From positions 1 to 5,616 of the IMG/VR virus record IMGVR_UViG_2778261085_000003: 5,616 nucleotides of DNA. One strand, 5' to 3'. Below, one piece after another: positions 1 to 4,546 of the stretch. The stretch is from a virus (taxonomy: Duplodnaviria > Heunggongvirae > Uroviricota > Caudoviricetes). The notes under the pieces were generated by a model. That model was not told the DNA's origin. It was given only the letters and a program-made list of their open reading frames with translations, and ran no database searches. How positions within the stretch are numbered: the first letter of the stretch is position 1; each line of letters begins with the position of its first letter. The position numbers were made by a program, and so were the translations under genes.

Positions 1-324
1 GGGATGCTTTAAATCACAGGAATTAATGTTGCACTCAGTAAAATGGTTTTTAAGGGGTTCTATTCGAATCCCTTTCTGTTTCATTAACAAGCCAAATCCC
101 TTATCAATGATATCCATTAATTCCATGAAGTATTTTTCATGTAAATCCTGGTTATCAGAGAGTTGCTTCTCTTCGTACAGCCCGATAAAGGCACGACGCA
201 CGTTACCGGATATAGTATCGATGGTTTCTTTTTCTACGGTACTCAGGTCAAGAGTCGCCAGTTGAGAACGAACTATATTCGCTGCCATTTCCTGGAATGG
301 TTTTGGTAAATCTTTAAATTCCAT
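1..324 (-). CDS. Hypothetical protein, partial (N-terminal 108 codons visible; continues beyond left edge)
   Basis: ATG at 324-322 (minus) preceded by GAGG about 6 nt upstream (plus 331-334 region); frame is open on the minus strand all the way to position 1 (no stop, checked triplet by triplet). Translation begins MEFKDLPKPFQEMAANIVRSQLATLDLSTVEKETIDTISGNVRRAFIGLYEEKQLSDNQDLHEKYFMELMDIIDKGF. Not in the supplied ORF track because it has no stop inside the window. Region is AT-rich (41 G+C in the first 120 nt by hand count). Function not recognised. Confidence 0.5.
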   Translation of the reverse strand, partial: MEFKDLPKPFQEMAANIVRSQLATLDLSTVEKETIDTISGNVRRAFIGLYEEKQLSDNQDLHEKYFMELMDIIDKGFGLLMKQKGIRIEPLKNHFTECNINSCDLKHP

Positions 325-346
325 TATTAGCCTCGTTGGTTAGCTA

Positions 347-565
347 TTAACGTGGGTATGTAATCATTCTGGCAATGCTTAATGCCGCTGCTTTTTCCAG
401 CCTGGTGATATCCTGCTCCAGAGCGGACAGATTTTCAGCCTGCTTAGCCCTGGCTTCATTGGCCCATTTCAAATCCTGCGCTGCATTAATTTTCTGGCGC
501 ATCCACTCATAAAGTTCATCATCGGTATAGTCTGGCGCGATGATGACGGGTTCTCGTTTCTGCAT
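347..565 (-). CDS. ydfC: YdfC-like small prophage protein (72 aa)
   Basis: ORF in track; ATG at 565-563 preceded by GAGGAA about 7 nt upstream; length and position (third small gene downstream of the dicA-like gene, same strand) match the ydfA-ydfB-ydfC arrangement of the Qin prophage as I recall it. Identity is from recalled gene order and length, not from a verified alignment. Confidence 0.7.
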   Translation of the reverse strand: MQKREPVIIAPDYTDDELYEWMRQKINAAQDLKWANEARAKQAENLSALEQDITRLEKAAALSIARMITYPR

Positions 566-594
566 ACTGATTCCTCGCGGTGCTGTTTCGCTTA

Positions 595-723
595 TCAGCC
601 GTTAGATTTTGCCGAACTGGAAAGCGCCTGTTTAAATTCGCTGAAGCTGAGAGCTTCAGCGCCTTCGGCAAGGCTTTCGAAGTATTCTTCGTAAGACTTT
701 TCCATGATTGTGTCGAAATCCAT
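595..723 (-). CDS. ydfB: YdfB-like small prophage protein (42 aa)
   Basis: Not in the ORF track (too short). Minus-strand ATG at 723-721 preceded by AGGTGA; hand translation gives MDFDTIMEKSYEEYFESLAEGAEALSFSEFKQALSSSAKSNG then TGA at 597-595. Acidic, protein-like composition; 42 aa matches the recalled length of YdfB; sits between the ydfA-like and ydfC-like genes. Confidence 0.6.
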   Translation of the reverse strand: MDFDTIMEKSYEEYFESLAEGAEALSFSEFKQALSSSAKSNG

Positions 724-724
724 A

Positions 725-880
725 TCACTCACCTGAGTTTCTTTCCAGCCAGCGACGCGCGCCAGTTTCGGTTTTAAACGTTTTGCTTTTGGTATACGTC
801 ATCGCGGTGAACGTTCCGTCATGGTTGGGAAACACGCCGTATACCAGATATTCGTTGTTACCAAGATCGATAGTATCCAT
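725..880 (-). CDS. ydfA: YdfA-like small prophage protein (51 aa, DUF1391-like)
   Basis: Track ORF 725..934 starts at a GTG; the internal ATG at 880-878 has a better ribosome-binding site (GAGG about 5 nt upstream within AAGGGGAAATGAGGTCAGC) and gives MDTIDLGNNEYLVYGVFPNHDGTFTAMTYTKSKTFKTETGARRWLERNSGE, 51 aa, the recalled length of YdfA. Stop TGA at 727-725 lies 1 nt from the ydfB-like ATG. Confidence 0.65.
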   Translation of the reverse strand: MDTIDLGNNEYLVYGVFPNHDGTFTAMTYTKSKTFKTETGARRWLERNSGE

Positions 881-957
881 GCTGACCTCATTTCCCCTTA
901 ACGCCGGGGCAGCGGAACTGTTTGCTGAGAACACCGTGCGGTGTCTTGATGTAAAGT

Positions 958-986
958 AGATTAGTCATAGCTAACGGCTTGGTCAA
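958..986 (-). promoter_or_regulatory. Candidate sigma70 promoter for the ydfA/ydfB/ydfC-like operon (dicB-operon promoter equivalent)
   Basis: On the minus strand: TTGACC (plus 981-986), 17-nt spacer, TAATCT (plus 958-963). An operator-like palindrome overlaps the spacer and -10; a second lies just upstream of -35. Predicted by eye only. Confidence 0.4.
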
Positions 987-1009
987 GTGTTTTTGTTTGT
1001 CATGGCTAA
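961..1009. promoter_or_regulatory. Pair of operator-like 14-bp palindromic sites (putative DicA-like repressor binding sites)
   Basis: TTAGTCATAGCTAA at 961-974 and TTTGTCATGGCTAA at 996-1009 share the half-site pattern TT(A/T)G(C/T)-N4-(G/A)CTAA with the two sites in the dicA/dicC intergenic region. Confidence 0.45.
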
Positions 1010-1026
1010 CATTTTTGACAGAAAAA

Positions 1027-1054
1027 AAGATAACACATTGATTGTGTTATCTTT
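1027..1054 (-). terminator. Inverted repeat overlapping the dicA-like stop codon; candidate intrinsic terminator for the repressor transcript
   Basis: AAAGATAACACA (1027-1037) / TTGAT loop / TGTGTTATCTTT (1043-1054) is a perfect 12-bp inverted repeat; on the minus strand it is followed by a run of seven T (plus 1021-1027 is a run of A). Stem is AT-rich, so terminator strength is uncertain; it could instead be a protein-binding palindrome. Confidence 0.35.
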
Positions 1055-1454
1055 TGTTTGTTCGTTGACGGGCTTTTAATAATTCTTCAAAGAGTTTGTT
1101 GAAATTTTTTACTCGGGCGCGCATCTCGGTGAGCTGAGCGTCCTGTTCTGATTCAGGCAATGCATTAAAAAGTTCAAGGAGCTCGTGTTCTTTGGGGGAT
1201 AAAGCAACTGGATCCTCAATAGGTGGTGATGGCTGCTTGTCTTCATCGCCAAATAGAATCCATGTTGGCGAGCACTGCAGTACATTGCTAAGTGCAAAAA
1301 GATTCTTCCCTGTTGGTTCGCTATCATCCCGTTCCCATTGTGAAACCGACACATGAGAAATTTTCAGGGCTTTAGCAAGAGACCTTTGGGTGTATTTGAG
1401 GTTTTTTCGGCGATATCTAATGCGTTCGCCAATGGTTAAATTTTTTGTATCCAT
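1047..1454 (-). CDS. dicA: DicA-like repressor (CI-type, XRE-family helix-turn-helix), 135 aa
   Basis: ORF in track; N-terminal helix-turn-helix segment (QRSLAKALKISHVSVSQWERDDSEPTGKNLFALSNVL); length and sequence closely match my recollection of E. coli Qin prophage DicA; divergent from a Cro-like gene across a short operator-bearing intergenic region. Confidence 0.9.
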   Translation of the reverse strand: MDTKNLTIGERIRYRRKNLKYTQRSLAKALKISHVSVSQWERDDSEPTGKNLFALSNVLQCSPTWILFGDEDKQPSPPIEDPVALSPKEHELLELFNALPESEQDAQLTEMRARVKNFNKLFEELLKARQRTNKR

Positions 1455-1536
1455 AGTTAGCCAATGCTAAATCTTATTGACTATGTTTTTGTTAACATCT
1501 ATTTTGTTAGTCATGACTAACAATTGGGTGCTTTAA
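1455..1536. promoter_or_regulatory. Divergent promoter/operator region between the repressor and Cro-like genes
   Basis: Two 14-bp palindromes: TTAGCCAATGCTAA (1457-1470, imperfect) and TTAGTCATGACTAA (1507-1520, perfect). Plus-strand candidate promoter for the Cro-like gene: TTGACT (1477-1482), 17-nt spacer, TATTTT (1500-1505), so the predicted start site falls inside the second palindrome. Minus-strand candidate -10 TAAGAT (plus 1471-1476) with a weak -35 would give the repressor a very short leader. Confidence 0.55.
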
Positions 1537-1767
1537 ATGCTTAAAACAGACGCGCTTTTGTATTTCGGTTCAAAAACAAAACTTGCACAAGCTGCTGGTA
1601 TTCGTTTGGCTTCGCTTTATAGCTGGAAAGGGGATCTAGTTCCTGAAGGTCGCGCGATGCGCCTGCAAGAGGCATCCGGCGGGGAACTTCAGTACGACCC
1701 CAAAGTTTATGACGAATATCGTAAGGCAAAGCGTGCGGGGCGGTTGAACAATGAAAATCACCCCTGA
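1537..1767 (+). CDS. dicC: DicC-like Cro-type regulator, 76 aa
   Basis: ORF in track; first gene divergent from the repressor; helix-turn-helix-like segment (GSKTKLAQAAGIRLASLYSWKG); length and sequence match my recollection of Qin DicC. Confidence 0.85.
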   Translation: MLKTDALLYFGSKTKLAQAAGIRLASLYSWKGDLVPEGRAMRLQEASGGELQYDPKVYDEYRKAKRAGRLNNENHP

Positions 1768-2284
1768 ACAGGTTTGTGAGGCTCTGGATGCCTGGGTATG
1801 CCGACCAGGAATGACACAGGAGCAGGCGACGATATTAATCACGGAAGCATTCTGGGCTCTGAAAGAACGCCCGAACATCGATGTTCAACGCGTCACGTTT
1901 GATGATGGCGCGGTTGATCAACGGGCACTGGGCGTTAACCGGGTGAAGATATTCGAACGCTGGAAAGCTATCGACACCAGGGATAAGCGGGAAAAATTCA
2001 CGGCGCTGATTCCGGCAATTATGGAGGCTATCCGGATCAGTGATTTCAGGTTGTATTGTGAAATTACTGACGGAAAAAGCATTACGTACATGATCTCCGG
2101 GTTAAACAAAGAATATGGCGATGTGGTGGAGTCCGGGCTGCTTTTTGCGGATCCAGCTGTTGTGGAACGTGAGACTGACGAGCTTATAGAAAAAGCTATT
2201 GCTTTCAAGCATGCGTATCGTCAGCAATACCAACATTACTTTGCAGATAAACAAATATCTTCCTGGGGTTCGTATGAGTATTGA
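1751..2284 (+). CDS. YdaT-family protein, 177 aa
   Basis: ORF in track; starts 17 nt before the DicC-like stop; the N-terminal MKI... and the segment REKFTALIPAIMEAIRISDFRLYCEITD resemble Rac prophage YdaT (REK..LIPAI..R..C motif) as I recall it; the position after the Cro-like gene is typical of this family. Confidence 0.7.
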   Translation: MKITPEQVCEALDAWVCRPGMTQEQATILITEAFWALKERPNIDVQRVTFDDGAVDQRALGVNRVKIFERWKAIDTRDKREKFTALIPAIMEAIRISDFRLYCEITDGKSITYMISGLNKEYGDVVESGLLFADPAVVERETDELIEKAIAFKHAYRQQYQHYFADKQISSWGSYEY

Positions 2285-3314
2285 TGCACTGCAATGGGCT
2301 AAAAAGGTGAAAACCGGCAGTTCATCAAGTAAGTCAGTATTGACCTGGCTTGCTGATATGTGCGGTGCCGATTTGTGTGCATACCCGTCAGTATCTGCAC
2401 TGGCTGAAGTAACTGAACTGAACAAAAAGACTGTTCAGGACAGCTTACGACACCTGATGGAGATTGGGTTAATTGTTGATACCGGTGAGAGAAAAGGCCG
2501 AACAAAGCAAATCGTGGTGTACCGACTTATCGGTGTAGAAGAAAGTGTTGCCGAGCCTGAATACACCCAAAAACGGGAGTCTTTAAAGGTGGGTAAAATT
2601 GGTGCTGTTAATAAAAACAGTACCGAAAACGGTTATGTTTCAGCACAAAACAGACCCAAAAACGGAACTCTTTTCTGCATGGAAAATAACCAAAGACACC
2701 CAAATTTTCCATCAAAGACACCCAAAAACGGATCACGGAACCCAAAGGAACCAAAAGATCTAAACCCCACACATAACGCACGTGAGAGTGCTCCGACCAG
2801 TGAGCTGGAGGTTTTGTCGTTACAGGCAACGCCCCCTGAATTCCTGGATGGCTTGAGCGAACCTATCGGAAAATTTCCGATGACCAATGGTTGGCATCCG
2901 TCGCCTGATTTTCGACGGCGGGCTGCACTGTGGGGAGTTGCTCTGCTGGAGCCGGAATTTACACCTGCTGAACTTGTCGCATTCCGGGATTACTGGAGTG
3001 ATGAGGGAAAAGTGTTCACGCAGGTTCAGTGGGAGCAGAAATTCGCCCGCCACGTAAATCACGTCAGGGCGCAGGTTAAACCAGTCAGCAAGGGAGTAAA
3101 CCATGCAGCAGCACCAGGTGGCACCGAATCACGGGCAGTTCAGGAAATTCGGGCAGCACGTGAGAAGTGGGAACGTGAAAACAGATTTATCAGCGACGGA
3201 AACGGCCTGGAAGCTGTGGGAACTCATGGGGGAGATTTATTCGAATCGCTGGACCCAGAAGAACGGTGCCGCGCCTACGAAGCTCTGGATTGCACAGATT
3301 GGCGCGATGACTGA
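2274..3314 (+). CDS. Phage replication initiation protein: N-terminal helix-turn-helix DNA-binding domain plus DnaT C-terminal-like domain
   Basis: Track ORF begins at 2199; I prefer the in-frame ATG at 2274, which overlaps the upstream stop (ATGAGTATTGA, stop at 2282-2284). N-terminus (SVLTWLADMCGADLCAYPSVSALAEVTELNKKTVQDSLRHLMEIGLI) looks like a winged helix-turn-helix of phage initiators. The C-terminal segment GKFPMTNGWHPSPDFRRRAALWGVALLEPEFTPAELVAFRDYWSDEGKVFTQVQWEQKFARHV resembles the C-terminal region of E. coli DnaT (..RLAALWGVAL..YW..EGKVF..VQW..) from memory. The 3' end is uncertain because of overlap with the next gene. Confidence 0.8.
   Translation: MSIDALQWAKKVKTGSSSSKSVLTWLADMCGADLCAYPSVSALAEVTELNKKTVQDSLRHLMEIGLIVDTGERKGRTKQIVVYRLIGVEESVAEPEYTQKRESLKVGKIGAVNKNSTENGYVSAQNRPKNGTLFCMENNQRHPNFPSKTPKNGSRNPKEPKDLNPTHNARESAPTSELEVLSLQATPPEFLDGLSEPIGKFPMTNGWHPSPDFRRRAALWGVALLEPEFTPAELVAFRDYWSDEGKVFTQVQWEQKFARHVNHVRAQVKPVSKGVNHAAAPGGTESRAVQEIRAAREKWERENRFISDGNGLEAVGTHGGDLFESLDPEERCRAYEALDCTDWRDD
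2563..2757. repeat. Iteron-like direct repeats inside the initiator gene (candidate replication origin)
   Basis: Exact ACCCAAAAACGG at 2565-2576, 2654-2665 and 2720-2731; variant ACCGAAAACGG at 2622-2632; CAAAGACACCCAAA at 2691-2704 and 2712-2725; GGAACC(C)AAAG doublet at 2737-2757; all in the same orientation, next to an A+T-rich stretch (about 2585-2620). Confidence 0.5.
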
Positions 3315-3768
3315 GCAGCAAATCCGGCAGGTCTGCCGCCAGTGCATGGACCGCTGCCGGGCGGGTGAAACATGGCCTCCTGACCTTGCTGAGTTTGTGG
3401 CGCTGATTTCAGAAAGCGGAGCCAATCCATTCGGTCTGACAGTGGATGCCGTGATGGAGGAGTACCGTCGCTGGCGCAATGAGTCTTGGCGATACGACGG
3501 AAGCGATAAATATCCGTGGTCTCAGCCTGTGCTGTATCACATTTGCCTCGAGATGCGTTCAAAGGGGATTGAGAGCCAGATGACCGAAGGGGAGTTAAAA
3601 CGACTTGCAGAACGGCAGCTGACGAAATGGGCAAAGCATGTTGGTAATGGACTGAGCGTTCCGCCAGTCCGGCGACAACTGGCGGCCCCCAAACGCCCGT
3701 CGGGACCAACGCCAATTGAGTTGCTGAAACAGGAGTATGAACGCCGGAAAGCAGCTGGGTTTGTTTGA
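3103..3768 (+). CDS. Lambda P-like replication protein (helicase loader), 221 aa if started at 3103
   Basis: ORF in track; the ATG at 3103 has a strong ribosome-binding site (AAGGGAG about 6 nt upstream). Recalled lambda P aligns over the body (PDLAEFVAL vs PGQFVAW; YPWSQPVLYHICLEM vs YPWKSNAHYWLVTNL; MTEGELKRLAERQL vs LTDAELRRKAADEL) and weakly from about residue 60 (KLWIAQIGAMTEQQ vs RQWVLAFRENGITTMEQ). Alternative starts are ATG 3226 and ATG 3307 (ATGACTGA overlap with the upstream stop). Confidence 0.7.
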   Translation: MQQHQVAPNHGQFRKFGQHVRSGNVKTDLSATETAWKLWELMGEIYSNRWTQKNGAAPTKLWIAQIGAMTEQQIRQVCRQCMDRCRAGETWPPDLAEFVALISESGANPFGLTVDAVMEEYRRWRNESWRYDGSDKYPWSQPVLYHICLEMRSKGIESQMTEGELKRLAERQLTKWAKHVGNGLSVPPVRRQLAAPKRPSGPTPIELLKQEYERRKAAGFV

Positions 3769-3801
3769 GTTGATAAGTAAGTTTACCGGGAGGAAATTTT
3801 A

Positions 3802-4530
3802 ATGGAGACCGTTTTTGACGCACTGAAAGCAATGGGAAAAGCCTCTTCCCAGGGAGTGGCTGCACGTCTTGGAATGACCAGGGATGAGGCGATTAACGAG
3901 CTGTGGAAACTGAAGCGTCGCGGGGAAGCTGATAACAATGGTCCGATGTGGTGGCTGATTCAGTCCGGAGAAAGCGAATCACATTCACAGGTACCGAAAG
4001 TGACAGCGCAAATGCTGATTGGTGCGATAGAGCAACATGGTCCTAAAACGGCGGATGAGCTGGCATTGATGTTCAGAATCACTTCCCGTCGGGCGAATTC
4101 ATCACTGGTAATGGCAATCAGCAAAGGACGCCTGATTCGCGTAAATCAGAACGGTAAATTTCGTTATTGTATACCTGATGAAAAAATTAACGATATGAGT
4201 GCGGAAAGCACCATGCTGGTGCAAGTAGGTTCGGACACCGACAAAAACGAAAAGCAGAGTGATCGCAATCGTTTTTTGCCAGCCAAAGAGCATGGTCAGA
4301 GAGAAGATACTGTGGCAGACATTGTGCAGCCGCTGCCATCGTTCACCGAAAAGCGAATGAATTACCAGGTTTTACCATCGCTGCATATGGCAAACCGCGA
4401 ACTGCGCCGGGCGAAAAGTCATGTCCAGAAGTGGGAGCGTGTCTGCGCCGTGCTGCGGGAGCTGAACAGGCACCGGGATATTGTCCGACAGATTGTCGAT
4501 TCCTCCAGTCGTATTGTGTCGGAAAAGTGA
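3802..4530 (+). CDS. Hypothetical prophage protein, 242 aa, with two winged-helix-like segments and a basic helical C-terminus
   Basis: ORF in track; strong ribosome-binding site (GGGAGG about 9 nt upstream); protein-like composition. Possibly a DUF1627-type prophage protein, but that assignment is from memory and not verified. Confidence 0.8.
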   Translation: METVFDALKAMGKASSQGVAARLGMTRDEAINELWKLKRRGEADNNGPMWWLIQSGESESHSQVPKVTAQMLIGAIEQHGPKTADELALMFRITSRRANSSLVMAISKGRLIRVNQNGKFRYCIPDEKINDMSAESTMLVQVGSDTDKNEKQSDRNRFLPAKEHGQREDTVADIVQPLPSFTEKRMNYQVLPSLHMANRELRRAKSHVQKWERVCAVLRELNRHRDIVRQIVDSSSRIVSEK

Positions 4531-4546
4531 TTCCTAGGGAGGGCTT

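Follow-up and report, generated by a model that had tools for sequence, protein, structure and literature searches.

A near-copy of the Qin prophage DicA/DicC repressor switch with a candidate operator at the repressor start

Genes and regulatory elements of the locus

The window, meaning the whole stretch of 5,616 nucleotides that was analysed, carries two divergent genes whose products correspond to the repressor DicA and the Cro-like protein DicC of the Qin (Kim) prophage of Escherichia coli K-12 (Table 1). The repressor is 93% identical to K-12 DicA across 135/135 residues, and DicC and the Cro-like protein share 99% identity. In a Pfam search the 135-aa repressor matched HTH families only (HTH_3, 4.6e-16, and Phage_CI_repr), and an S24 peptidase or autocleavage domain was absent. 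These identities support the divergent switch of the CI/Cro type that the first-pass annotation had proposed from the letters alone, and they place it among known systems, as it differs little from the DicA/DicC (CI/Cro-like) repressor switch of E. coli Qin, a pair reported to be bistable (PMC10448788). The gene order ydfC-ydfB-ydfA, dicA, dicC and a YdaT-like gene agrees with that of K-12, and the 69-bp stretch that runs from the repressor ATG through the operator Oc aligns to K-12 with four substitutions and no indels. Taken as a whole and together with the mechanism set out below, the region is very probably the regulatory core of a lambdoid prophage immunity switch of the DicA/DicC type that belongs to the specificity class of K-12 Qin.

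Table 1. Positions of genes, operators and promoter elements in the window
Feature	Position	Strand	Description
ydfA (DUF1391), ydfB, ydfC-like genes	347..880	-	Pfam DUF1391 1.1e-26; K-12 order ydfA-ydfB-ydfC
Putative leftward -10 TAATCT	958..963	-	17 nt from the -35; read from the sequence
OL1-like operator TTAGTCATAGCTAA	961..974		Between leftward -35 and -10, overlapping the -10
Putative leftward PL/dicBp-like -35 TTGACC	981..986	-	Read from the sequence; conserved in K-12
OL2-like operator TTTGTCATGGCTAA	996..1009		Upstream of the leftward-promoter -35
Terminator-like hairpin	1025..1055		Bidirectional, 13-bp stem, T-runs on both strands
dicA-like immunity repressor gene	1047..1454	-	ORF; product 135 aa, N-terminal HTH
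Predicted repressor mRNA start	1457	-	5'-ACU-AUG, 3-nt leader; from K-12 TSS via gap-free alignment
Oa	1457..1470		Imperfect 14-bp palindrome TTAGC-CAAT-GCTAA; -13 to +1 of repressor promoter
Predicted repressor -10 TAGCAT	1464..1469	-	-12 to -7; position derived from K-12 TSS
dicC promoter -35 TTGACT	1477..1482	+	Consensus scan; K-12 assignment with 5' RACE support
Om	1482..1495		Degenerate middle site TATGTTTTTGTTAA; between dicC promoter -35 and -10
dicC promoter -10 TATTTT	1500..1505	+	Consensus scan; predicted +1 ~1512, transferred by alignment
Oc	1504..1523 (core 1507-1520)		Perfect 20-bp palindrome TTGTTAGTCATGACTAACAA; ~-8 to +12 of dicC promoter
dicC (Cro-like) gene	1537..1767	+	76 aa; Pfam P22_Cro 1.7e-11

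To the right of dicC the window differs from Qin, as YdaT-like, DnaT-domain O-like and lambda-P-like replication genes are found here where Qin has the ydfX pseudogene. An Rfam scan across the window returned no RNA families, and a BLAST search with the whole window found no complete E. coli genome that is colinear with 80% or more of it. The window also shows signs of prophage decay, namely an IS629 end and an in-frame stop in an Ead/Ea22 gene, so that the switch may control only a cryptic element.

Operators and promoters around the repressor gene

The perfect palindrome TTAGTCATGACTAA lies at 1507-1520, as first read, and in full it extends to 20 bp (1504-1523, TTGTTAGTCA/TGACTAACAA). It is identical at 19/20 positions to the K-12 operator Oc (TTGTTAGTCATAACTAACAA) and occupies the equivalent position; the symmetry is perfect in the window, with the centre CATG, whereas the K-12 site has TATG/CATA, and the core equals the class consensus built from 27 Oc/OL sites. 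The hexamers TTGACT and TATTTT, the latter TATCTT in K-12, were recovered at 1477-1482 and 1500-1505 both by reading and by a consensus scan, as the promoter of the Cro-like gene had been annotated; they are separated by 17 nt and form the sole sigma-70-like match within 880-1620. TTGACT is invariant, and the spacer exactly 17 nt, across the members of the switch family described below. The first-pass statement that the palindrome overlaps this -10 holds for the 20-mer but not for the 14-mer, which starts 2 nt past it.

The function of Oc has been established in K-12, where the dicC start was mapped by 5' RACE to eleven nt past the -11 A, where Oc is bound by DicA in vivo and in crude-extract EMSA, where a single CTAA to CTCA change in Oc abolishes binding, and where a 10-fold decrease of dicA raises dicC 700-fold (PMC3441716). 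Since the spacer is nearly identical, these experiments bear out the earlier placement of a repressor operator over the -10 and +1 of the Cro promoter. Binding and start sites are thus assigned to the window by homology to K-12. DicA binding of the window sites is deduced from the recognition helix ISHVSVSQWE, which is identical in both proteins and implies the same immunity specificity, and Oc is by this transfer the predicted high-affinity DicA operator of the window.

The operators form a set that exceeds chance. A search of the window with the pattern TTAGYNNNNRCTAA, allowing at most one mismatch, found 4 sites against 0.45 expected, a number reached in 0/200 shuffles, and the perfect 14-mer with up to three mismatches gave 3 matches against 0.18 expected. 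The imperfect copy TTAGCCAATGCTAA, termed Oa, was confirmed at 1457-1470 beside the repressor start codon, with two bases (1455-1456) between the palindrome and the ATG. It shows four mismatches to the perfect palindrome, yet both 5-bp half-sites are common to the two (TTAGY / RCTAA), and the centres of Oa and Oc, at 1463.5 and 1513.5, are 50 bp apart, in line with the earlier estimate. A third, degenerate site lies exactly 25 bp from each of them; this frame, 1482-1495, appears to be the published Om, the names Oa, Om and Oc dating from the 1980s. Within the Qin class Om is a poor site, with a score of 0.61; in relatives the site is good, and the same frame carries a class-specific half or full site, such as TTAGGTTTCCCTAA in L059 or TTGAG.. 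in RM10466. The two operators first counted, Oa and Oc, are therefore both present but not the full number, since the spacer has three sites 25 bp apart and two more are found at the leftward promoter.

That promoter lies downstream of dicA and before the ydfA/B/C-like genes, and its operators are present as in the Qin type, dicF and dicB lying beyond the window. Around OL2 the likeness to the Oc region extends over 991-1014, at 88% identity. The leftward -10 is assigned from position and conservation, because it falls below the consensus-scan threshold. In K-12 the dicBp region is repressed 22-fold by DicA, and by their arrangement the ydfA/B/C-like genes are predicted to be the first genes of a leftward operon under OL1/OL2 control. 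A third OL site was not found within 25-35 bp on either side of 961-1009, where the next palindrome is the terminator-like hairpin; this hairpin, which extends over the dicA stop codon and stands between dicA and the leftward promoter, is kept in K-12 and RM11911.

The repressor promoter and the site at its start

The repressor gene, which starts with ATG, had been described as having no Shine-Dalgarno sequence and a transcript that may be leaderless or nearly so, and both statements withstand closer analysis. The best pairing with the anti-Shine-Dalgarno sequence within the 20 nt before the AUG amounts to -1.5 kcal/mol, compared with -3.3 to -12.1 kcal/mol at the eight other gene starts tested in the window; the Cro-like start has a weak Shine-Dalgarno sequence (GGGTG, -3.7 kcal/mol). 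Across the family the mean is -0.23 kcal/mol before the repressor (zero in 30/33 spacers) and -7.58 kcal/mol before cro. In K-12 the dicA start was placed at 1645954, 3 nt upstream of the AUG (ORF start 1645957), by dRNA-seq and RLM-RT-PCR (PMC4681348 Table S3), and Rend-seq counts dicA among the known leaderless genes (PMC8794815). With the start transferred from K-12, the repressor mRNA of the window is predicted to be near-leaderless in the same way.

The -10 element implied by this start reads TAGCAT, TAGTAT or TAGAAT in every class of the family, and a recognisable -35 is absent from the repressor promoter. TAAGAT (1471-1476, minus strand) was considered as an alternative -10 and rejected, as it implies a leader of ~10 nt while the K-12 start is only 3 nt from the AUG. 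The consensus scan of 880-1620 found no minus-strand promoter, Yun et al. likewise found no consensus dicA promoter (PMC3441716), and Reg-Seq detected no RNA polymerase site for dicA within its construct, which suggests that the promoter is weak or context-dependent. A weak promoter together with leaderless translation in the absence of a Shine-Dalgarno sequence agrees with the very low copy number of DicA, ~20-25 per cell.

The failure of the scan and of Reg-Seq to detect a promoter could also be read to mean that the ATG at 1454 is not the true start, or that translation proceeds mainly from a longer, leadered transcript, and that the gene is not functionally leaderless. This is highly improbable. 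K-12 DicA and all relatives are homologous from the methionine of 1454 onwards, the primary 5' end in K-12 lies 3 nt upstream by two methods, the ATG is 1-2 nt from Oa in all 40 family sequences, a Shine-Dalgarno sequence is lacking family-wide, and an upstream start would fall inside or beyond the divergent dicC promoter.

A point missed in the earlier annotation is that Oa encloses the predicted repressor -10 (TAGCAT) as well as the predicted start site, which raises the question of what else the palindrome is. The family that bears on it consists of 40 distinct sequences with related switches. A pattern scan of viral contigs gave 121 matches, mostly chance, which were kept only with a CAT 1-2 nt upstream and an HTH repressor ORF, and a protein scan of genome contigs with DicA yielded five loci, of which those of Citrobacter and Serratia were useful and one, on a contig of a Collinsella MAG, is clearly E. 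coli-like. Another of the five, in Christensenella (39%), was set aside as too distant, and so was Cronobacter phage phiES15 (repressor 51% identical) for its layout, which is a different one with CTAAC-N4-GTTAG-like palindromes elsewhere and was excluded from the covariation table.

Within the family the distance from the ATG to Oa is fixed at 1-2 nt in 40/40 sequences, and the two-fold symmetric half-sites of Oa are kept in every member. Repressors with the helix ISHVSVS are paired with TTAGY..RCTAA (Oa 17/17, Oc 17/17, OL 26/26) and those with VAHVTIS with TTAGR..YCTAA (Oa 19/19, Oc 18/19, OL 32/39), and a third class, with the helix VSGSSIS, has TTGAG..CTCAA, its Oa scoring 0.77 against its own class and 0.49 and 0.54 against the others. 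Oa thus scores best against the Oc/OL consensus of its own class. The covariation represents few independent events, namely two large classes and one class with a single member; sequences that are related do not count as independent samples. Read from the sequence, the two bases of Oa that vary with class fall at -4 and -9 relative to the dicA start, where promoter function imposes only a weak constraint, so that their change with class favours an operator role. The covariation among these 40 switches supports the view that Oa behaves as a true operator.

Such a role is not self-evident for DicA, which in the one direct test reported, an in vivo assay in K-12, bound neither isolated Oa nor isolated Om (data not shown in PMC3441716). 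For this reason the first-pass claim of two operator palindromes stands in full for Oc, while the second, Oa, is a candidate operator as far as DicA occupancy is concerned; occupancy by DicA may require cooperativity or a higher concentration. The negative binding result could also mean that Oa is no operator at all and serves just as -10, discriminator and start site, its resemblance to Oc being a coincidence or a remnant of an old duplication, with Oc as the sole operator of the spacer. Oa occupies precisely -13..+1 relative to the mapped dicA start, and its centre (CAAT here, TAAT in K-12) is unlike the YATR of all 27 Oc/OL sites in the class, both of which would suit a pure promoter element. 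Against this, the symmetric half-sites are kept family-wide, position 5 of Oa follows the recognition helix, as well as Oc and OL, in switching from Y to R (17/17 and 19/19) and differs again in the third class, and these bases, at -4 and -9, are unconstrained by the promoter. Furthermore, DicC, which represses dicA 48- to 84-fold upon induction, prefers exactly such palindromes. A purely promoter-bound role of Oa is hence unlikely.

Oa is probably a low-affinity DicA site and/or the DicC site through which dicA is shut off, and the covariation supports its being a genuine protein-binding operator, possibly mainly for DicC. In K-12, ChIP-seq of DicC gave peaks that flank dicA on both sides and a palindromic motif, TT(A/C/T)G..C(G/A/T)AA, at a resolution too coarse to separate Oa from Oc (50 bp apart), and in O157:H7 the overexpression of dicC lowers dicA. 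Site-resolved footprints of DicC or DicA were not found in the literature. The location of the dicA -10 and +1 within Oa, together with the covariation, helps to reconcile the negative DicA-Oa binding with the strong shut-off of dicA by DicC.

Working of the switch and its relatives

The proposed mechanism combines processes demonstrated in K-12, namely the binding of DicA to Oc, the repression of dicC and dicBp, the requirement of DicA for dicA transcription, the 3-nt leader, the binding of DicC at both regions and the repression of dicA by DicC, with parts that we infer for the window, namely the transfer from K-12 itself, the -10 assignment, the relief of occlusion and the occupants of Oa and Om. 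In the repressed state a DicA dimer on Oc (1504-1523) would block the strong Cro-like promoter and hence dicC, and DicA on OL1/OL2 (961-1009) would block the leftward, dicBp-like promoter of ydfABC. The repressor itself would be transcribed from a weak, -35-less promoter with -10 and start inside Oa, active only when DicA is present, and its mRNA would be translated as a leaderless message with 3 nt before the AUG and no Shine-Dalgarno sequence. At high DicA concentrations Oa, and perhaps Om, may act as low-affinity autorepression sites like OR3 of lambda. Having no RecA-cleavable domain, DicA would be inactivated as in Qin, by the antirepressor Rem or by instability, whereupon dicC would fire; DicC, which would recognise the same TTAG..CTAA sites, would then occupy Oa (-13 to +1), shut off dicA and lock the other state. 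For K-12, a Rem antirepressor of DicA and bistability are documented; an Ala-Gly site is absent from DicA, and recA is not needed for spontaneous switching.

The dependence of the repressor promoter on DicA can be explained in two ways. The starts of dicA and dicC are only ~55 bp apart, so that the RNA polymerase footprints overlap, and much of the DicA 'autoactivation' may consist in lifting the occlusion that the dicC promoter causes, with possible help from a DicA contact at Oc (centre -56.5). Alternatively, DicA at Oc could activate the repressor promoter directly through contact with RNA polymerase, in the manner of lambda CI at OR2 and PRM, rather than mainly by removing the competition of the dicC promoter. 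The K-12 dicA promoter is silent in a dicA deletion and regains activity with plasmid DicA (PMC3441716), the K-12 authors proposed a CI-like activation, a -35-less promoter is typical of activator dependence, and Oc, with its centre at -56.5, could be near enough for a contact with the alpha C-terminal domain. A centre at -56.5 is neither a canonical class I nor a class II position, however, and the geometry is unlike that of lambda, where the centre of OR2 lies near -42. In addition, dicC is derepressed in the dicA deletion, so that RNA polymerase at the overlapping promoter and the DicC protein could explain the silence, and more DicA leads to less expression (IC50 36 vs 73) (PMC3441716). 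Direct activation is a possibility to be taken seriously, but one we would not favour.

Only tentatively, then, do we combine relief of occlusion with the data on Oa into the proposal that Oa might perform a triple duty, as -10 element, as start of an mRNA with a 3-nt leader and as operator for DicC or excess DicA, with autoactivation being mostly relief of occlusion, and that this arrangement would be conserved in at least three specificity classes. If so, specificity would depend on a small number of recognition-helix residues and, in each half-site, on a single base (Y vs R, position 5), and the family would be a natural set of orthogonal minimal switches.

The window shares with K-12 Qin dicA-dicC the spacer layout, the -35 and 17-nt spacer, the ATG-proximal Oa, the terminator hairpin, the downstream operators and the ydfABC order. 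Its discovery value is therefore small, as the switch, Oa, Om and Oc, the DicA-Oc interaction and the leaderless dicA mRNA have all been published for the K-12 orthologue; what the comparison validates is the sequence-only reading, which recovered operator, promoter and leaderless status from the raw letters. The likeness to lambda cI-cro is one of design: the genes diverge, the cro-proximal operator overlaps the lytic promoter, two clear sites and a candidate middle one follow a spacing of ~24-25 bp, a second operator cluster lies at the leftward promoter, the repressor is required for its own promoter and has a (nearly) leaderless mRNA, and Cro shuts off the repressor promoter. The operators, in contrast, are unrelated in sequence (14-20 bp TTAG..CTAA vs 17-bp lambda sites), the repressor here lacks an S24 autocleavage domain, the middle site is degenerate, the starts are ~55 bp apart instead of ~80 bp and the leader has 3 nt instead of 0. 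The sites, furthermore, are centred at -6.5, -31.5 and -56.5, and the ATG-proximal one lies over -10/+1 and not between -35 and -10.

Early work compared the locus with c2/cro of phage P22; the N-terminal HTH of DicA is 57% identical to P22 C2 over the residues aligned to 8-70, and DicC matches Pfam P22_Cro. C2, however, has 216 aa with a RecA-sensitive C-terminal domain, compared with the 135 aa of DicA, and the operator sequences differ. In its regulation DicA resembles GfoR/GfhR of Gifsy-1/Gifsy-3, which are short, have no cleavage site and are inactivated by a small antirepressor, as DicA is by Rem, and not by RecA. Within the 5.6-kb window an antirepressor gene was not seen; in Qin, Rem lies 3.6 kb from the dicBF operon. 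Leaderless repressor mRNAs are also known for other K-12 prophages, namely racR (Rac) and ymfK/cohE (e14), with leaders of 0 nt compared with 3 nt for dicA and with unrelated proteins and operators. The DicA/DicC family itself, judged by its covariation, would provide at least three operator/repressor classes that are naturally orthogonal yet share a fixed scaffold, a possible resource for builders of synthetic switches.

The dicA-dicC locus and its operators

Segment 900-1800 of the window shows 88% identity to the dicA-dicC locus of the cryptic E. coli K-12 prophage Qin and matches 850 complete E. coli genomes, each over at least 80% of the segment length. At the protein level, the repressor shares 93% identity with DicA and the Cro-like protein 99% with DicC, and from the repressor ATG to the palindrome end the K-12 spacer shows four differences from that of the window and no indels. 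The published K-12 Oc, TTGTTAGTCATAACTAACAA, is the site found here with one base changed. Leftward lie ydfC, ydfB, ydfA (DUF1391) and a terminator hairpin, followed by dicA, and rightward of dicC a YdaT-like gene, a DnaT-domain O-like gene and a lambda-P-like gene, the same order as in Qin and its intact relatives. The locus is the already known DicA/DicC switch and nothing new as a system. The first-pass annotation had described a divergent immunity switch with two palindromic operators, a reading that the K-12 counterpart supports in all main points, with three corrections; checked against the sequence, all its coordinates, for both palindromes and for the -35 and -10 elements, are correct.

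Features of the switch region in the window
Feature	Position	Strand	Description	Centre from repressor start	Extent from inferred dicC start (about 1512)
Repressor (dicA) ORF	1454..1047	minus	135 aa, HTH
Cro-like (dicC) ORF	1537..1767		76 aa
dicC promoter	1477-1482, 1500-1505		TTGACT, 17 nt, TATTTT
Oa	1457-1470		imperfect palindrome TTAGCCAATGCTAA, read from sequence	-6.5	-55..-42
Om	1482-1495		operator-like	-31.5	-30..-17
Oc core	1507-1520		perfect palindrome TTAGTCATGACTAA, read from sequence
Oc	1504-1523		full 20-bp extent of the perfect palindrome	-56.5	-8..+12
Inferred leftward promoter	981-986, 958-963		TTGACC, 17 nt, TAATCT; from sequence and conservation
OL1	961-974		operator-like
OL2	996-1009		operator-like

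Both palindromes are present, but the count of two operators was too low, as there are three sites in the spacer and a further two at the leftward promoter. The operator motif TTAGYNNNNRCTAA is beyond chance, with four sites at no more than one mismatch against 0.45 expected, a number reached in none of 200 shuffles. Two of the four, OL1 and OL2, fall outside the feature first annotated, downstream of the repressor gene, where OL1 covers the spacer and -10 of the putative PL/dicBp-like promoter and OL2 sits on the upstream side of the -35. The promoter itself scores below the threshold of the consensus scan, in which the dicC promoter was the only sigma-70-like match within 880-1620. The dicA stop codon (1047-1049) falls within a hairpin at 1025-1055 that has a 13-bp stem and a T-run on either strand; this hairpin is likely a bidirectional terminator insulating dicA from the leftward promoter.

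The predicted repressor promoter within Oa and its conservation

In K-12, dicA transcription begins at 1645954, 3 nt ahead of the ORF start at 1645957, a leader length that RLM-RT-PCR confirmed (Romero et al., PMC4681348), and a Rend-seq based list agrees on this start (PMC8794815); the proposal of a near-leaderless repressor mRNA is thereby borne out for the counterpart. Transferred by alignment, the start falls at minus-strand position 1457 of the window, and the repressor transcript would begin 5'-ACU-AUG. On this strand Oa reads TTAGCATTGGCTAA, and because the transferred start places TAGCAT at -12 to -7 (1469-1464), with the last A at +1, the repressor promoter has its -10 and start site within Oa. 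It lacks a recognisable -35, in agreement with Yun et al. (PMC3441716). The imperfect palindrome, first proposed as an operator, stands in its coordinates and symmetry, but it also contains the core of the repressor promoter, and DicA and DicC are candidates for binding it. As the dicA and dicC start sites lie about 55 bp apart, geometry implies that the polymerase footprints must overlap.

Relatives were gathered by protein search, from E. coli mosaics differing only in the immunity module, and by a viral-contig scan whose pattern was the Oa-to-(-35) module with specificity positions left free. Filtering left 40 distinct repressor-plus-spacer sequences, all built on a single rigid layout: CAT (repressor start), 1-2 nt, a 14-bp palindrome, 6 nt, TTGACT, 17 nt, the -10, 0-2 nt, a second 14-bp palindrome and the cro gene. 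Across 33 distinct spacers, the best anti-SD pairing in the 20 nt before the repressor AUG has a mean of -0.23 kcal/mol, with a value of zero in 30 of them, versus a mean of -7.58 kcal/mol upstream of cro, which upholds the claim that the repressor gene has no Shine-Dalgarno sequence. Since this element is absent and the Oa-ATG distance is fixed at 1-2 nt in all classes, leaderless repressor expression appears, from sequence, to be a family-wide trait and not a K-12 peculiarity.

By specificity class, recognition helix ISHVSVSQWE (17 distinct) goes with TTAGY-N4-RCTAA (Oa 17/17, Oc 17/17, OL 26/26), VAHVTISQWE (19 distinct) with TTAGR-N4-YCTAA (Oa 19/19, Oc 18/19, OL 32/39) and VSGSSISLWE (one distinct) with TTGAG-N4-CTCAA, counts that overstate the statistical weight because the classes represent few independent evolutionary events. 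Class consensuses were derived from the Oc and OL sites alone and read TTAGTCATGACTAA, which is also the Oc core of the window, TTAGAAAAATCTAA and TTGAGAAAACTCAA; each of the seven Oa variants and eight Om-frame variants scored best against that of its own class. The Oa bases that distinguish the classes occupy repressor promoter positions -4 and -9, which promoter function constrains little. The Oa centre is TAAT or CAAT, versus YATR in 27 of 27 Oc and OL sites of the same class, and is fixed by the -10. We read this as dual selection on Oa, as promoter core and as protein-binding palindrome; because its centre is non-optimal, DicA affinity for Oa would be low.

The third class comes from E. 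coli RM10466, where the spacer and the region downstream of the repressor carry its sites on the same scaffold; its flanking genes (YdaT, DUF1391) differ hardly at all from the window's, which makes it a clean immunity-module swap. Cronobacter phage phiES15 encodes a 51%-identical DicA-like repressor, has no ATG-proximal palindrome and appears to use inverted half-sites, CTAAC-N4-GTTAG, at other positions, a different architecture in the same protein family. BUCT708, a phage reported from Stenotrophomonas, carries a switch laid out as in the enterobacterial family. A metagenome-assembled contig labelled Collinsella sp. carries a Qin-identical dicA locus and is probably mis-binned E. coli DNA.

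Known and proposed regulation by DicA and DicC

In K-12, multicopy clones of the spacer could be kept only when Oc carried point mutations, crude DicA extract shifted the 90-bp spacer, and Oc mediated DicA repression of a reporter in vivo, which a single CTAA to CTCA change in Oc abolished (Yun et al., 2012, PMC3441716). The same study mapped the dicC +1 by 5' RACE, with the -11 A exactly at -11, found dicC up 700-fold when dicA was down 10-fold, and stated, on data not shown, that DicA failed to bind Om and Oa, two further operators predicted from sequence, when these were cloned in isolation. Three operators each were later described in the dicA-dicC and dicA-dicBp regions, with dicBp repressed 22-fold by DicA and relieved by the antirepressor Rem, and bistable switching was recA-independent and required DicC (Ragunathan et al., 2023, PMC10448788). 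DicC ChIP-seq peaks flank dicA on both sides, the DicC motif is palindromic, TT(A/C/T)G...C(G/A/T)AA, and DicC induction represses dicA 48- to 84-fold (2024 preprint, PMC11430063). A literature search for site-resolved DicA or DicC footprints found none.

As in K-12, DicA at Oc would block the dicC promoter in the window, and the leftward operon, repressed by DicA in K-12, would be controlled from OL1 and OL2. A weak, -35-less promoter within Oa would yield a repressor mRNA with a 3-nt leader, translated without a Shine-Dalgarno sequence, and therefore low DicA, cited at about 20-25 copies per cell. The dicA promoter of K-12 lacks a consensus and is silent without DicA (PMC3441716). We think such dependence more likely reflects DicA lifting the occlusion imposed by the strong, overlapping dicC promoter; activation of the repressor promoter by direct contact from DicA at Oc is a less likely but realistic alternative. 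DicA has no S24 domain, and in Qin it is neutralised by Rem or switches spontaneously (PMC10448788). DicC would then bind the same site family and repress dicA, locking the other state, a repression most economically explained by DicC occupying Oa over the -10 and +1. One reading, plausible though somewhat on the unlikely side, gives Oa three duties within a very compact switch that would work by promoter occlusion across the family.

Neighbouring genes and prophage state

The YdaT-family protein (177 aa, 1751-2284) overlaps the end of dicC by 17 nt; its gene takes the position held by cII in lambda and is a truncated pseudogene, ydfX, in K-12 Qin. Within the O-like gene with its DnaT domain, a direct repeat of about 19-25 nt (core ACCCAAAAACGG) occurs three to four times (2560-2739), and the copies resemble origin iterons placed in the initiator gene, the arrangement of lambda ori. 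For the lambda-P-like gene, the ATG at 3307, translationally coupled to the O-like stop through an overlapping ATGA (3307-3314), is the most likely start rather than the ORF's first ATG (3103), and the RM11911 annotation agrees with 3307. A single in-frame TGA (5098-5100) splits the Ead/Ea22-like gene (4966-5385) into an N-terminal piece covering Pfam model positions 1-42 and a C-terminal piece covering 46-97; the gene is probably a pseudogene, which points to prophage decay. Among complete E. coli genomes, none is colinear with at least 80% of window 1-5616, the best covering 68-77% at 93-95% identity, and the window is therefore a mosaic variant. At about 5479-5616 (BLAST match 5460-5616), the prophage sequence is interrupted by the terminus of an IS3-family element, IS629-like and 98% identical, a sequence that single E. 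coli genomes carry up to 50 times and that many plasmids also contain.
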